Origin: Bradyrhizobium sp.
GTDB lineage: Bacteria; Pseudomonadota; Alphaproteobacteria; Rhizobiales; Xanthobacteraceae
Assembly: GCF_035935975.1 (NCBI RefSeq)
Contig: NZ_DASYWN010000058.1
Coordinates: 7,993-71,992 of the forward strand
DNA: 64,000 nucleotides
Direction: 5' to 3'
Shown here one piece after another: positions 7,722-63,834 of this stretch. The notes under the pieces are model-generated. The model saw only the letters and a program-made list of their open reading frames with translations, was not told the DNA's origin and searched no databases. The position numbers and the translations under genes are program-made. The stretch's first letter is position 1; every line of letters begins with the position of its first letter.

Positions 7722-8315
7722 TCAGCCGCCCAGCGAGCCCTTGGTGGACGGGATCTCGCCCACCGCCTTCGGATCGATCGCGACCGCGGTGCGCAGCGCC
7801 CGTGCCAGACCCTTGAAGCAGGACTCGGCGATATGGTGGCTGTTATCGCCATATAGGGTCTCGACGTGGAGAGTCACGCCGGCGTTGATGGCGAAGGCCT
7901 GGAACCACTCGCGCACCAGCTCGGTGTCGAACTCACCGATCTTGTCGCGGGGGAAGTCGGCCTTGAACACCAGGAACGGGCGGCCCGAAATGTCGATGAC
8001 CACGCGCGACAGGGTCTCGTCCATCGGCATGTGCACGCCGGCATAGCGGGTGATGCCCGCCATGTTGCCGAGCGCCTGCTTGACCGCCTGGCCGAGCGCG
8101 ATGCCGGTGTCTTCGGTGGTATGGTGATAATCAATGTGCAGGTCGCCCACCGCCTTGACCGTCAGGTCGATGCGGGAATGGCGGGCGAGGAGATCGAGCA
8201 TATGGTCGAAAAAGCCGATGCCGGTGGCGATATTGGCCACGCCGGTACCATCGAGGTTCACGGAGACCTCGATGTCGGTTTCCTTGGTCTTGCGCTTGAT
8301 CGTCGCTGTGCGCAT
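7722..8315 (-). CDS. hisB: imidazoleglycerol-phosphate dehydratase
   Basis: [10 protein letters not shown]...GIGFFDHML...HHTTED...HHIAES, canonical IGPD motifs. Confidence 0.95.
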
Positions 8316-9643: not shown

Positions 9644-10272
9644 CACTGACGCACGCACACCCGAGCAAGGTCGCAGTCCCGCCGCTCGCCTGGGTCGGCA
9701 TCGCGCTGCTCTTGCTGGCGCTGCAGGCTTCGATCCTGTTCGCAATGGGGCGGGTGCCGATCTGCACGTGCGGCTACGTCAAGCTCTGGCATGGCGCGGT
9801 GAACAGCTCGGAAAATTCGCAGCACATCGCCGACTGGTACACCTTCTCGCACATCCTGCACGGCTTCCTGTTCTACGGCCTGACCTGGCTGCTGTTCGCG
9901 CGCCTGCCGTTCGTGCAGTTGCCTCTTCCAAGTTTGTCCTGGCCGGCGCGGCTGATCATCGCGATGCTGATCGAAGGCGCCTGGGAGATCGTCGAGAACT
10001 CGCCGTTCATCATCGAGCGCTACCGCGCCGGCACGATCTCGCTGGATTATTATGGCGATAGCATCGTCAATTCGGTCTCGGACAATCTGGCCATGGTGCT
10101 GGGGTTCCTCGCCGCGCGCGTGCTGCCGGTATCGGTCACGGTCCTGATCGGGCTCGCCTTCGAAATCATGCTGGCGCTCCACATTCGCGACAATCTGACG
10201 CTCAATATATTGATGCTGATCCACCCGATCGATGCCGTGAAACAATGGCAATCGGGTCCGCCCATCATCTGA
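9640..10272 (+). CDS. UPF0314/DUF2585-like integral membrane protein
   Basis: About 5 TM helices. 4-nt overlap with the GNAT gene. From memory, this position between hslV and hslU is typical of Rhizobiales. Confidence 0.55.
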
Positions 10273-10321: not shown

Positions 10322-11626
<1,305 letters not shown>

Positions 11627-11640
11627 TTCGGCCGGGCTCG

Positions 11641-11820
11641 GCTATCTATCCGCTGTCGTCCCCGCCTGGTGCGCAATTGCGCACGTGGGCGGGGACCCAT
11701 AACCACCGGCGGTCCTTGCTTAAACAGATGTCGACCACGATCCCGACTCAAACGGCCGCCTGTGGTTATGGGTCCCGGGTCGCGCTTCGCTTGCCCGAAA
11801 CGACAGCGACGATAGATCGC
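11641..11820. repeat. about 180-bp imperfect palindrome (REP-like, family G)
   Basis: Outer arms gctatctatccgctgtcgt / acgacagcgacgatagatcgc. Inner arms gggacccataaccac / gtggttatgggtccc. An internal gtgcgcaattgcgcac palindrome. Confidence 0.55.
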
Positions 11821-11837
11821 GCCAGCTCGGGTGCGGC

Positions 11838-12962
11838 GTGATCGCTCAGATCCAGAAGAACCCCTGGCGGCTGCTGCTCGCGATCAACGCGGCGGTCATC
11901 GTCGGCGTGTTCATTCACAAGATCCAGCTGCCGCCTTACGTCCCCTACATCCATCTCCTGGTCGACTACCATCTCGGCTTCATCAAGCGGGCGCTGATCG
12001 GGGCGATCGTCGCGCTGTTCACTGACAAGGTGCCGGTCTGGCTGGTGTTCGCGCTCGGTGGCGCGACCTGGCTGGTGACGCTCGGGCTCTACGCAAGACT
12101 GTTTCGGAAGACCTTCGGCTTCACCGCGAAGACGCTGCCGCTGTTCGTGTTCATCGCGGGCTCGCCGTTCTTCCTGAAGAACTTCATGCATACGCTCGGC
12201 CATTTCGACATTTATGGCTGCGCGCTCGCGATCATCCTGCTGTTGATGCCGGCGGGTTCATTGCTGTTCGTGGCGACGGCCGCGCTGTTCTCGATCGTCC
12301 TCGTACTGATCCACCACATCCATCTCTTGATGTATGTGCCGACGATCATCACTATCGTCGTGGTCAGGCACTACCTCGCCCATGGCTGCAATCGCACCAA
12401 TGTTGTCTTCGGTATCGTCGCCTTCGCCATCGTCTCCGCGCTGTTCTTCGCGGCGCAATTCCTGGGAACGATGCCGATCCCCGAGGCGGATTTCGTTGCG
12501 TATCTGAAGACCCGGATGGCCGATCCGTCGCGCACCGACCTGCTGCAATTCGCCTATATCTGGTACCAGCCGCTGGCGAAGGAGATCTCGGATACCTGGG
12601 GCCGGCTGCCACACAACATTCTCGGCGTGCCCATGTTCGCGCTGCTGATCTGGCTGCACACGCCGCTGTGGCGCTTCTTCGCCAATTTGATCGGCGCGCT
12701 CGCAAGCGAGCTGCATCGCCGTCTCGTCATCGCCGCGCTTGTGGGCGTCAGCCTTGCCTATCTCGTGATGTTCGCGATGGTGTTCGACTATTCGCGCTGG
12801 ATCTCGAACTGGGCGGTCTGCATGTTCCTGATCCTGCACGCGGTGAAGATGCTGCCTGCCGCGCGGGAGACGGCGTTGATTCCGTCGGAGGATCAGAAGA
12901 CAAACATCTTCGGCCTGATCATCACGCTGATCCCGCGCGTCGGAATCGTCCGGCCGTTCTAG
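11838..12962 (+). CDS. polytopic membrane protein, family not recognised
   Basis: 374 aa with about 9-10 hydrophobic helices and a GTG start. Codon usage looks coding. I recognise no motif. Confidence 0.55.
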   Translation: MIAQIQKNPWRLLLAINAAVIVGVFIHKIQLPPYVPYIHLLVDYHLGFIKRALIGAIVALFTDKVPVWLVFALGGATWLVTLGLYARLFRKTFGFTAKTLPLFVFIAGSPFFLKNFMHTLGHFDIYGCALAIILLLMPAGSLLFVATAALFSIVLVLIHHIHLLMYVPTIITIVVVRHYLAHGCNRTNVVFGIVAFAIVSALFFAAQFLGTMPIPEADFVAYLKTRMADPSRTDLLQFAYIWYQPLAKEISDTWGRLPHNILGVPMFALLIWLHTPLWRFFANLIGALASELHRRLVIAALVGVSLAYLVMFAMVFDYSRWISNWAVCMFLILHAVKMLPAARETALIPSEDQKTNIFGLIITLIPRVGIVRPF

Positions 12963-61185: not shown

Positions 61186-61260
<75 letters not shown>

Positions 61261-61336
61261 ATTTTTCCCAGAGCATCCAGCCAAACCGGGTCGGGCCGTG
61301 GTTCTCCACGCCGCTGGCGGCTGGCTTGGGTGTCAC

Positions 61337-61590
61337 ATGACAATTCTGGTTACTGGCAGCGCGGGTCATCTCGGGGAGGCAGTTCTGCGGTCCCTCCAGG
61401 CGCCTGGCTCGCTAGTGTGCGGGATCGATCTGAAAGCGTCACTCTTCTCCGATGCCGTTGGCTTGATCGCCTATCCGGCATTCGTGCGGCGCCAAATGGA
61501 CGGCCCGAGGGCCCTGATCCGGACCGCGACGTGCATAATCGCCTCAAGCGCGATCAAAGCGCTGCCGACATGTGGCGCCGGAGCCGCTTG
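61337..61590 (+). pseudogene. decayed 5' fragment of an NAD-dependent epimerase/dehydratase (SDR) gene
   Basis: MTILVTGSAGHLGEAVLRSL...GIDLK...FVRRQMDG parallels residues 1 to about 65 of the intact gene at 62848. Similarity decays with indels and then stops. Confidence 0.7.
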
Positions 61591-61717
61591 TGACCAAAAG
61601 AAACTTAGTATTACAAGTTGCCAACTCGCTCCGGGATCAGTTGTAGTAGCTTTCGCTTGCTCGCAGCCGCAACAGAATTTGATAATATCTTACTCAACAC
61701 GCGTTCATGCGGACCCA

Positions 61718-62131
61718 ATGGAATTGTCCTTTCCGATCGAATTCATAGTTCATGGAACTGCTGTCTCACTTCAGGCAAAGCGGGCCGAATCCAGGAACGA
61801 GTGGAAAGCGCGCGTCAAGGCTGCAAGCACAGCTGTCATTCCTCAGCCGCATTTCGCCAGCCAAGAGCCGATCGGCGTTACCTTGTATTATTTGCCTGAT
61901 GAGCCAATGACTGGCGACATCGACAACATCGTAAAACCAATTCTCGACGCCCTTTCAGCTCACATTTACGTCGATGATCAACAGGTCGAGAGACTTGTTG
62001 TTCAGAAATTCGAACCGGGCATTCCGTTTAGGGTCGAGAATCCGACCGAAATGGTGGCAGTCGCCGTCAGTGGACCTCGCCCCGCGTTGTATGTGCGTCT
62101 CTCGAACAAGCCACGCGAGGAGTTGCGATGA
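61718..62131 (+). CDS. RusA-family endodeoxyribonuclease-like protein (137 aa)
   Basis: TGDIDNIVKPILDALSAHIYVDDQQV matches the RusA acidic motif (D-x-D-N...DAL...DD). Lower-GC codon usage. The ORF is open upstream into the epimerase relic, but ATG 61718 is the plausible start. Confidence 0.7.
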   Translation: MELSFPIEFIVHGTAVSLQAKRAESRNEWKARVKAASTAVIPQPHFASQEPIGVTLYYLPDEPMTGDIDNIVKPILDALSAHIYVDDQQVERLVVQKFEPGIPFRVENPTEMVAVAVSGPRPALYVRLSNKPREELR

Positions 62132-62769
62132 CCGACAAAGTTTCAGAGGCCGAGTTTCTGCAAGGCCTTATTCCGCAGCTCCGTTCGGAAGGCTATGAGG
62201 TATATCTGCATCCAACTGCTCCGGTTGTGCCACCGTTCCTTGCTGATTTGCGACCCGACGCAATTGCGATCGGAAAAGGCAAGAAGCTAGTTATCGAACT
62301 TGTTACATCGGAAAGTACCCAACAGAAGAAGACGCGGGCGCTTGCGAACCTGATCAAAGAACACCCCGATTGGGAACTACGAGTCCTTGTCGTAACGTCA
62401 GCGAGTCGCGGTAACGAACTTCAGGTGCAATCTCGCGAGCAGATTCAGAACTTTCTCGACGAAATCAAATTGCTGCAGGACTCAAACCATGTTTCAGCCG
62501 CCTTCATCCTTGGCTGGGCCACGTTTGAAGCTATCGCCCGACGGCTGATGACGGCAACATTTGAGAAGCCGCAGACGCCCGGTCGCATTGTGCAGCAGCT
62601 AGCTCAAGAGGGTTATGTCACGCCATCCGAAGGCGATTTCCTCCGCATTCTTGCGGCGAAGCGCAACGCGTTAATTCACGGGAATCTTCATGATTTGCCG
62701 CAAAAAGGAGAGGTTGAGTTCTTCCGCGAAATATCAGAGAGGCTCGCAGCGGAATCCGCAGCCGCCTAG
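62128..62769 (+). CDS. PD-(D/E)xK-like N-domain + HEPN-like (RNALIH, Rx4H) C-domain protein (213 aa)
   Basis: ATGA overlap with the RusA-like gene. N-terminal EGYEVYLH...RPDAIAIGKGKKLVIELVTS is a restriction-endonuclease-like strand pattern. C-terminal ILAAKRNALIHGN gives R179/H184. The domain calls are motif-level inference only. Confidence 0.6.
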   Translation: MTDKVSEAEFLQGLIPQLRSEGYEVYLHPTAPVVPPFLADLRPDAIAIGKGKKLVIELVTSESTQQKKTRALANLIKEHPDWELRVLVVTSASRGNELQVQSREQIQNFLDEIKLLQDSNHVSAAFILGWATFEAIARRLMTATFEKPQTPGRIVQQLAQEGYVTPSEGDFLRILAAKRNALIHGNLHDLPQKGEVEFFREISERLAAESAAA

Positions 62770-62847
62770 CGCGATGGCTGCGGATATTGGCATTACGATC
62801 GTGGCTAGGACTAGAAGGCTCTGTCCGGAACGTACGTTAGACATGTA

Positions 62848-63834
62848 ATGGCAATCCTGGTTATTGGCAGCGCGGGTCATCTCGGGGAAGCCATTCTCCG
62901 GACGCTCCGCGGGCGCGGTTCACCCGCGCGCGGGATCGACCTGAAGCCCTCGCCCTTCACCGATGCCGTCGGCTCGATCGTCGACCCCGACTTCGTGCGG
63001 CGCCAGATGGACGGCGTCAGCGCCGTGATCCACACCGCGACGCTGCACAAGCCGCATGTGGCGACACACGGCAAGCAGGACTTTGTCGACACCAACGTCA
63101 CCGGCACGCTCAACCTGCTCGAGGCGGCGGTGACCGCGGGCGTGCGCAGCTTCGTCTTCACCAGCACCACCAGCGCGTTCGGCTCGCAGCTTCGCCCCGA
63201 AGCCGGACAGGCCGCGGTGTGGGTGACCGAGGATCTGTCGCCGGTGCCGAAGAACATCTACGGCACCACCAAATTGATGGCGGAGACCCTGTGCGAGCTG
63301 TTCTTCCGCGAGCGTGGGCTGCCGGTCGTGGTCCTGAGGACCTCGCGGTTCTTTCCGGAGGACGATGACGATCCGGCGATGCGGTCGGCCTACCCGCTGG
63401 ACAACGCGCAGGCCAACGAGCTGCTTTATAGACGGCTGGATATAGCGGACGCCGTGAGCGCCCATCTGCTCGCCGCCGAGCGAGCGCCAAAGATCGGCTT
63501 TGGGCGTTACATCGTCTCCGCCACCAGCCCGTTCGAGCCGCGCCATCTCGCCGCGCTCCCGCGCGGCGCGGCCGGTGTCGTGCACGAACTCTATCCGGAT
63601 TGCGCCGAGCTCTATGCGGCGCACGGCTGGCGGCTCTTCCCGGAGATCGACCGCGTCTATGTCAACGAGCGCGCGCGGCGTGAGCTCGGTTGGCGGCCTG
63701 AATTCGACTTCGCCCATGTGCTGCGCAGCCTTCGCGACGGCCGCGATTTTCGCAGCGCGCTGGCGCGCGAGGTCGGGTCGAAAGGCTATCACGACGAGCT
63801 GTTTGACGATGGATCCTATCCCGTCGCCCCGTAA
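62848..63834 (+). CDS. NAD-dependent epimerase/dehydratase family (extended SDR) protein
   Basis: ILVIGSAGHLGEA Rossmann motif (GxxGxxG), YGTTK (YxxxK), 328 aa. Confidence 0.85.
   Translation: MAILVIGSAGHLGEAILRTLRGRGSPARGIDLKPSPFTDAVGSIVDPDFVRRQMDGVSAVIHTATLHKPHVATHGKQDFVDTNVTGTLNLLEAAVTAGVRSFVFTSTTSAFGSQLRPEAGQAAVWVTEDLSPVPKNIYGTTKLMAETLCELFFRERGLPVVVLRTSRFFPEDDDDPAMRSAYPLDNAQANELLYRRLDIADAVSAHLLAAERAPKIGFGRYIVSATSPFEPRHLAALPRGAAGVVHELYPDCAELYAAHGWRLFPEIDRVYVNERARRELGWRPEFDFAHVLRSLRDGRDFRSALAREVGSKGYHDELFDDGSYPVAP

Follow-up and report, generated by a model that had tools for sequence, protein, structure and literature searches.

A RusA-family nuclease and an Hjc-like-HEPN fusion protein form a horizontally spreading two-gene cassette, a candidate conflict module, in Bradyrhizobium and other Alphaproteobacteria

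Among the housekeeping genes of a metagenome contig assigned to Bradyrhizobium sp. (NCBI RefSeq assembly GCF_035935975.1, contig NZ_DASYWN010000058.1), two small same-strand genes whose stop and start codons overlap lie in an islet of AT-rich DNA, which raises the question as to what this pair is, how it came to be there and what it could do for its host. The whole stretch of DNA analysed, hereafter the window, covers 64,000 nucleotides (positions 7,993 to 71,992 of the forward strand of the contig). The first gene encodes a RusA-family endonuclease and the second a protein combining an N-terminal domain resembling the archaeal Hjc resolvases with a C-terminal HEPN domain. As presented below, the two genes form an essentially obligate pair, and this pair is a horizontally spreading accessory cassette found mainly in Alphaproteobacteria. 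As for its function, we infer, with about an even chance of being right, a toxin-antitoxin (TA)-like or abortive-infection (Abi) conflict module.

The two open reading frames (ORFs) reported in an earlier note on this DNA, which had been made from the letters alone, are indeed where they had been placed. Gene 1 (61718-62131, + strand) encodes 137 aa and gene 2 (62128-62769, + strand) 213 aa, with an ATGA read in the sequence at 62128-62131 (+ strand) where the stop of the former overlaps the start of the latter, an arrangement indicative of translational coupling. The motifs singled out at the time, namely GDIDNIVKPILDAL...YVDDQQV in the first protein as well as RPDAIAIGKGKKLVIELV and KRNALIHG in the second, were likewise located in the window proteins. 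The AT-rich character of the islet was also borne out, its guanine-cytosine (GC) content being 0.53 vs. about 0.65 in the flanks; over 300-nt intervals, the GC content is 0.51-0.55 from 61550 to 62900 vs. 0.63-0.70 on both sides. A longer ORF of 277 aa (61298-62131), which would make gene 1 the distal part of a real fusion protein, was considered and discarded: the homologues have 137 aa and the same Met start, and the upstream portion is a decayed epimerase fragment with a 1-nt indel, joined in frame to the RusA gene. In other words, the true start of gene 1 is 61718. The same false epimerase-RusA joining can be seen in the automatic gene call (264 aa) on a near-identical contig, L082.

Relatives of the pair were searched for with a RusA profile in one genome per species, which gave at least 200 of them, and the best 80 loci were retrieved; residue conservation and pair statistics were computed on 78 paired genome loci. 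By profile, catalytic residues and modelled fold, gene 1 belongs to the RusA family, and junction cleavage is predicted for its product. It matches the Pfam family RusA (PF05866) with 42.6 bits vs. a cut-off of 22.8, and this family was recovered in all of the 957 close homologues of gene 1 (957/957) found by a k-mer-seeded search, which gave 100 for gene 2; many homologues of the one gene come from contigs equal in length to those of the other. A single-sequence search of the PDB returned nothing useful and a profile search was needed, in which the core of the protein aligned to E. coli RusA (PDB 1q8r). With the AlphaFold2 (AF2) model (predicted local distance difference test, pLDDT, of 80), all the structures matched by Foldseek at E<=1e-3 were E. 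coli RusA, with a best E of 3e-5 and template modelling (TM) scores of 0.56-0.74. The catalytic aspartates that the earlier note had picked out find their counterparts in these alignments: D67, D69, N70, K73, D86 and D87 of gene 1 correspond to D70, D72, N73, K76, D90 and D91 of E. coli RusA, i.e. the residues critical in catalysis and cation binding (PMC1636454), and each of them is at least 97% conserved in the 78 genomes. The aligned core of the E. coli RusA sequence used in one of the alignments was confirmed against PDB 1q8r. The DNA-binding R69 of E. coli RusA is replaced by Gly66 in gene 1, and this Gly is itself at least 97% conserved. Compared with the closest genome copy, the ratio of nonsynonymous to synonymous substitution rates (dN/dS) is 0.09 for gene 1, indicating purifying selection.

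The best-known RusA/Rus proteins come from lambdoid and cryptic prophages, and gene 1 shares with them (1q8r/2h8c) the Pfam family, the fold and the catalytic set. It differs from them by a C-terminal extension, by the Gly in place of R69, by a chromosomal non-phage context and by the Hjc-HEPN gene that follows it (78/80 loci). Within the RusA family, gene 1 falls into a distinct, non-phage clade of 137-aa proteins.

Gene 2 encodes a two-domain protein. Its N-domain (residues 1-117; 62128-62478, + strand) is an Hjc-like PD-(D/E)xK domain of the REase_AHJR-like type, matched by Pfam PF18743 over residues 6-117 with 63.4 bits vs. a cut-off of 26.1. The AF2 model (pLDDT 91) places this domain close to archaeal Hjc/Hje structures (2eo0, 2wj0, 4tkd and 1gef, all with a Foldseek probability of 1.0), and the PDB profile search of gene 2 agrees with Foldseek, the N-domain matching Hjc 2eo0. 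A structure search of the BFVD returned only domain-level PD-(D/E)xK matches. The core without its canonical Lys that the earlier note had discerned there holds: in a test of the complete E...PD...ExK motif, E7, D44 and E57 are present and the Lys is not, its position 59 being occupied by V59 in the window. Over the family, E7 is conserved in 67/78 members (86%), D44 in 77/78 (99%) and E57 in 70/78 (90%), and the Lys at position 59 occurs in 12/78 members and is missing in 66/78. The resemblance with archaeal Hjc/Hje thus extends to profile, fold and E...PD...E residues and stops at this Lys; because the latter is mostly missing, a nuclease activity of the Hjc-like domain is doubtful.

The C-domain of gene 2 (residues 122-213; 62491-62769, + strand) is assigned to the HEPN (HepT-like) fold by Foldseek, with HEPN/HepT structures 2hsb, 2q00, 1o3u, 7bxo, 5yep and 6m6w among the matches, and by a weak Pfam match that lies below threshold (DUF86, PF01934; residues 143-185, 15.2 bits vs. 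23.5), as does the match to the NCBIfam HepT_toxin (12.8 vs. 60); PF01934 matches are present in some of the gene 2 homologues. The Rx4H signature that had been read there earlier stands in the helical C-domain as R179-NALI-H184-G185 and conforms to the HEPN Rx4-6H pattern, with the codon of R179 at 62662-62664 and that of H184 at 62677-62679. In the 78 genomes, E134, R138, R173, H184 and G185 are invariant and R179 is found in 77. The dN/dS of gene 2 relative to the closest genome copy amounts to 0.05, again indicating purifying selection. Judged by these residues, the RusA- and HEPN-type active sites are intact and the Hjc-like site is degenerate. The structural models of both proteins thus bear out the three folds, RusA, Hjc-like and HEPN, for which a structure search had been suggested in the earlier note.

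The two genes belong together. The Hjc-HEPN gene lies directly 3' of the RusA gene in 78/80 loci, and both unpaired loci are explained, one by the end of a contig and the other by an IS110 insertion in gene 2. The genes overlap by 4 nt in 52/78 loci and by 1 nt in 14/78 (66/78 together), and gene 2 homologues at only 33% identity are still located behind a RusA gene. Mean pairwise identity is 59% for RusA vs. 37% for gene 2, the divergences of the two being correlated (r 0.76). A HMMER search with a gene 2 profile gave 2,633 representatives at 50% identity, 519 of them at E<=1e-30, and the best 150 are all full-length (about 210-220 aa). The RusA and Hjc-HEPN pair is essentially obligate. Of the neighbourhood envisaged in the earlier note, i.e. 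co-occurrence in unrelated genomes and in defence islands, the first part stood, the pair being conserved in 78/80 loci and in distant branches, and the second did not, the pair being located outside defence islands.

A few loci depart from this layout. In L063 (10424-11869, - strand), an IS110-family transposase sits inside the Hjc-HEPN gene right after the RusA stop codon, and this is the sole clearly disrupted copy among the 80 loci. In L044 (5604-5891) and L079 (10001-10291), both metagenome-assembled genomes (MAGs), RusA is apparently truncated and gene 2 is intact, and in L056 (10411-11054), also a MAG, gene 2 is split. Many of the loci come from MAGs, in which the frameshifts of L044, L056 and L079 may be assembly errors and some taxon labels are doubtful.

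The best 80 loci belong mostly to Bradyrhizobium, Mesorhizobium, Rhodopseudomonas, Methylobacterium, Acetobacteraceae and other Alphaproteobacteria. Two MAG contigs labelled as Flavobacteriaceae (L016 and L169) also carry the cassette, at 66% GC; because such a value is atypical of this family, these bins are probably contaminated or mislabelled. The GC content of the pair is below that of every available flank in 77/78 genomes, with a mean difference of 9.5 points, and since the homologous pairs are of low GC in nearly every genome, the GC dip of the window is not due to chance. The cassette is found at a wide variety of housekeeping sites. Its 115 non-redundant nearest neighbours, for which ORFs were picked with a heuristic based on the GC content of third codon positions (GC3) and families were read among the 25 commonest listed, are overwhelmingly metabolic or housekeeping by Pfam. 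Across the 80 loci no conserved third gene accompanies the pair, and the neighbours in common reflect synteny between close relatives. As had been stated in the earlier note, phage, integrase and transposase genes are absent in the vicinity of the islet, and this holds for at least 6 kb on each side. The pair is present on 6 of 72,556 plasmid records, mostly chromids. On one plasmid, the Agrobacterium Ti plasmid pTi_CFBP2177 (L164, 868-7577), it is found between imuA-imuB-dnaE2 plus ligD and a gene for a GHKL-type (HATPase_c_3) ATPase.

What, then, may such a cassette do? Under the conflict-module reading, the HEPN domain would act as a growth-arresting RNase effector and the Hjc-like domain, with its Lys mostly lost, would bind DNA structures in a sensing or regulatory role. 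The RusA-like protein would be a still-active branched-DNA nuclease and the obligate partner of the former, which could either keep the RNase silent in a complex or recognise or process the branched DNA formed when an invading replicon replicates or recombines, thereby providing the trigger. Toxicity, a physical complex of the two proteins, triggering by branched DNA and an anti-phage benefit are all putative components of this scheme. Because its active site is invariant and its conservation higher than that of gene 2, the RusA protein would be more than a passive antitoxin.

Among the closest known systems is the type VII TA system HepT/MntA. As in the latter, the pair includes a HEPN fold bearing the Rx4HG motif, for which the nearest HEPN structures include the HepT toxins 7bxo, 5yep and 6m6w, and forms a small operon of two overlapping genes in which the partner is encoded upstream. 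The partner there is an MNT nucleotidyltransferase and here a RusA-family nuclease, and the HEPN protein here bears an additional N-terminal Hjc-like domain. Besides, the HepT profiles remain below threshold and no MNT gene is adjacent, RusA being the upstream gene in the window as well as in 78/80 loci; no NTP-transferase was present among the cassette neighbours either, in the window or in the 80-locus neighbour survey. The pair is thus not a member of HepT/MntA. As for TA modules in general, the likeness is in architecture only, that of a small, overlapping, solitary and mobile pair.

A survey of HEPN proteins lists an AHJR-like REase fused to a DUF86 HEPN domain (Anantharaman et al., 2013; PMC3710099), which is exactly the architecture of gene 2 and the basis of Pfam PF18743, and the text of this survey makes no mention of RusA. 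The same survey describes the prokaryotic HEPN families with an Rx4-6H motif as mainly RNase toxins found in TA, Abi, CRISPR and restriction-modification contexts (PMC3710099). In a literature search, no paper was found that connects RusA and HEPN proteins in a defence or TA setting, or that cites PF18743, and the REase-HEPN fusion turned up in the above survey alone. The design also recalls immune proteins that combine a sensor and an effector, namely CARF-HEPN Csm6/Csx1, AbiJ-NTD-HEPN and ApeA, in which an N-terminal ligand- or nucleic-acid-binding domain precedes a C-terminal HEPN RNase; from established knowledge and the above survey (PMC3710099), this is a resemblance of design only, as the N-domain here has a junction-binding nuclease fold, no CRISPR or Abi context is present and activation would be hypothetical. 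What would be new here is a HEPN-based two-gene conflict cassette with a RusA partner whose catalytic residues are intact.

Several points weigh against the conflict-module reading. RusA, the upstream partner, has all the residues of a nuclease active site and is the better conserved of the two proteins, which is unusual for an antitoxin. The MNT nucleotidyltransferase, usual partner of HepT, is absent beside gene 2. The substrate preference of gene 1 may differ from that of E. coli RusA. Among the 80 best loci no genome occurs twice, and many TA families are multi-copy per genome. Among the 115 neighbours, no enrichment in defence genes is observed beside the pair, i.e. the pair does not behave as a member of defence islands; specific defence matches are isolated (PD-Lambda-3_B, PDC-S36, PD-T4-1 and Aga_HEPN), the other matches being generic enzyme folds. 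Lastly, the PADLOC check suggested for the islet came out negative, with none of the PADLOC-DB 2.0 models matching either protein at E<=1.

A different explanation, possible though on the whole unlikely, is that the cassette is an accessory module for DNA repair or recombination. The RusA-like protein would resolve junctions or reversed forks, and the Hjc-HEPN protein would bind the same structures and clear RNA from them, such as R-loops or stalled transcripts. Both proteins have Holliday-junction resolvase folds in which acidic active-site residues are present, the pair is single-copy, under strong purifying selection and outside defence islands, and on pTi_CFBP2177 it adjoins imuA-imuB-dnaE2 and ligD. 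The patchy distribution, the low-GC islet and the empty sites in relatives (see below) speak the other way, as core repair genes behave otherwise. The repair neighbourhood is besides encountered at one locus only, with no recurring repair family among the 115 neighbours, and the prokaryotic HEPN families with an Rx4H motif are mainly RNases of conflict systems (PMC3710099).

A doubtful variant is a plain TA addiction cassette devoid of immune role, in which one of the two proteins, be it the HEPN RNase or the RusA-like DNase, would be toxic and neutralised by the other, so that loss of the cassette would kill the cell. It differs from the conflict module proposed above solely in the absent immune role. 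The small overlapping operon, alone among housekeeping genes and spread by recombination, would suit such a cassette, and the Lys-less Hjc-like domain could compete with RusA for junction DNA. Plasmids are the usual location of addiction modules, however, and only 6/72,556 plasmid records, mostly chromids, bear the pair. As for the two MAGs L044 and L079, in which RusA appears truncated and gene 2 intact, they could reflect assembly errors; if real, a HEPN protein without RusA would argue against RusA as an essential antitoxin.

Regardless of function, the window documents how the cassette was acquired. In more than 25 related metagenome contigs, found in a scan with the epimerase protein (epimerase 85-91% identical), the site is empty: the thioredoxin gene is followed by the intergenic region with the tRNA-Gly and then directly by the epimerase ATG, the epimerase 5' end being present only once and the cassette absent. 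Because relatives have such empty sites, the status of the cassette as accessory and horizontally acquired follows. An imperfect direct repeat, which adds to the boundaries of the islet as first described, brackets it in the window (61337-61538 / 62848-63050; 202/203 nt, 78% identity) and corresponds to the first 203 nt of the epimerase gene. The right copy (62848-63050, + strand) forms the start of the intact gene for the NAD-dependent epimerase (62848-63834, + strand; Pfam) and the left copy (61337-61538, + strand; repeat family D1, gapped alignment) is a truncated and decayed version of epimerase nt 1-202. The right copy is 84-90% identical to epimerase orthologues, like the rest of the gene; the left copy is 70-78% identical, with differences over all codon positions and 23/67 aa changed.

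The two copies are in addition chimeric. At the 4 differing sites within nt 1-42, it is the left copy that has the consensus of the orthologues, and at 36/39 differing sites within nt 45-198 it is the right copy, the switch point falling inside a 24-nt block identical between the two; beyond nt 1-42, the left copy is foreign or decayed. With 43 informative sites, the Fisher test gives p ~3e-4, a value uncorrected for a breakpoint picked after viewing the data. Chimeric repeats of this kind are expected when a cassette arrives by homologous recombination and the crossovers fall within the repeats; the donor could have been either an allele that already had repeats on both sides or a circle with one copy.

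Elsewhere, close flanking repeats exceed the null expectation in 5/72 genome loci (32, 37, 97, 134 and 77 nt; 83-100% identity) and the other 67/72 are without flanking repeat. In two Bradyrhizobium species, the cassette lies just past the stop codon of fliP, with flanking duplications of differing extent (L004, 9860-9891 / 11088-11119, 32 nt; L006, 9880-9916 / 11086-11122, 37 nt), and four other genomes of the Bradyrhizobium group share the same left junction with different right flanks. In L043 (Mesorhizobium sp. M0587), the cassette and an alternative 440-nt segment stand in tandem, with two overlapping repeat pairs (9774-9907 / 11167-11300 and 11066-11176 / 11781-11891); the joint lies within a 9/10 microhomology, GTCGC(G/C)ATCG. 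L032 and L024 have the cassette on the opposite side of the 440-nt segment, after a 50-nt relic of the end of the upstream gene. Repeats together with a microhomology joint are scars to be expected of homology-facilitated illegitimate recombination, not of transposition. Because the repeats are chimeric and the joint of L043 lies in microhomology, the evidence points to acquisition by homologous or illegitimate recombination, and not by a transposase or an integrase.

Two more conventional routes were considered and rejected. A transposon-like target-site duplication does not fit repeats of 32-203 nt that are mostly missing altogether, chimeric copies in the window and one microhomology joint. 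A tRNA-targeting integrative island has neither an integrase nor a recurrent target, a tRNA adjoining the cassette in only 2/60 genome loci scanned plus the window, and not in the other 58. In the two loci concerned, otherwise unrelated, the upstream tRNA is Thr-CGT (L016, 9804-9879; L037, 9821-9896); tRNA genes, which are conserved, may provide anchoring homology when the cassette is acquired. In terms of classification, the cassette does not belong to known integrative or transposable elements, for want of a recombinase, defined ends and a target duplication of fixed length.

The same repeats nonetheless bear on another possibility, quite improbable in our view, that of a selfish element mobilising itself without recombinase, its two junction nucleases driving integration and excision via short flanking homology. 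Such an element, an addition equally improbable, would leave target duplications of variable length and rely on the HEPN RNase to enforce its retention. Close flanking repeats (32-203 nt) are present in six loci, the window among them, which represent five different sites; those of the window are chimeric, the cassette occupies different positions within one Mesorhizobium neighbourhood and two resolvase-type folds are encoded. Homologous and illegitimate recombination by the host would, however, yield the same repeats and the same 9/10 microhomology joint, and 67/72 loci are without repeat. In the 80-locus comparison the cassette shows no conserved ends, no conserved upstream sequence and no recombinase or transposase of its own, and self-mobilisation gives no role to the invariant HEPN site. 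If true, it would amount to a new mode of bacterial gene mobility.

As for a decayed recombination module of a lambdoid prophage, which the earlier note had itself named as the alternative and which the prophage origin of the best-known RusA and the weak match of gene 1 to the PHROG RusA families could evoke, it is extremely improbable and effectively refuted, as the neighbours are non-phage over 6 kb, neither the 50,697 phage records nor IMG/VR contain a relative of gene 2, the IMG/VR RusA matches are partial and distant (31-63% identity), and about 80 genomes have the pair intact, coupled and subject to purifying selection.

The remaining features of the islet concern its borders and expression. 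On the left, the window carries genes for PepSY, cytochrome b, a LON-domain protein and a thioredoxin-TPR protein followed by a tRNA-Gly(GCC) (61186-61260, + strand; ARAGORN, Rfam tRNA 67 bits), which belongs to the native flank; on the right, the epimerase gene is followed by those for a sugar dehydrogenase, a cytochrome c, ApbA, DSBA and MatE. Homology to the closest genome copy (L002, Bradyrhizobium sp. BR13661) spans only 61648-62757. A spacer (61539-61647, unstranded), with no homology in any of the 80 genome loci, separates the left repeat from the part common to the cassettes, and a second spacer (62770-62847, unstranded) extends from the stop codon of gene 2 to the right repeat, past 62757 where the homology to the closest copy stops. 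The 70 nt or so preceding gene 1 (61648-61717, + strand), common to the closest cassette copy, would presumably hold the promoter and the 5' untranslated region. The upstream sequence of the cassette is kept among close relatives only; a TTGACA-N16/17-TAGCAT motif is found there in related Bradyrhizobium copies, and no promoter was recovered from the window itself in a scan for the strict consensus. A scan of the islet region for terminators and Rfam families detected none besides the tRNA.

Regarding the biology of these soil bacteria, the empty sites and chimeric repeats provide a clean natural example of a two-gene cassette without mobility genes spreading among related bacteria. As it is positioned outside defence islands, the pair would be missed by screens based on guilt by association, and it is small (137 + 213 aa) with clear point-mutant predictions. 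If the conflict-module function proposed here is true, at least 200 species-level genomes would contain this uncharacterised conflict module, which more than 500 protein clusters at 50% identity would represent. An RNase effector would then be coupled to proteins recognising branched DNA, that is to say, recombination and replication intermediates would be the signal by which invading DNA is perceived.

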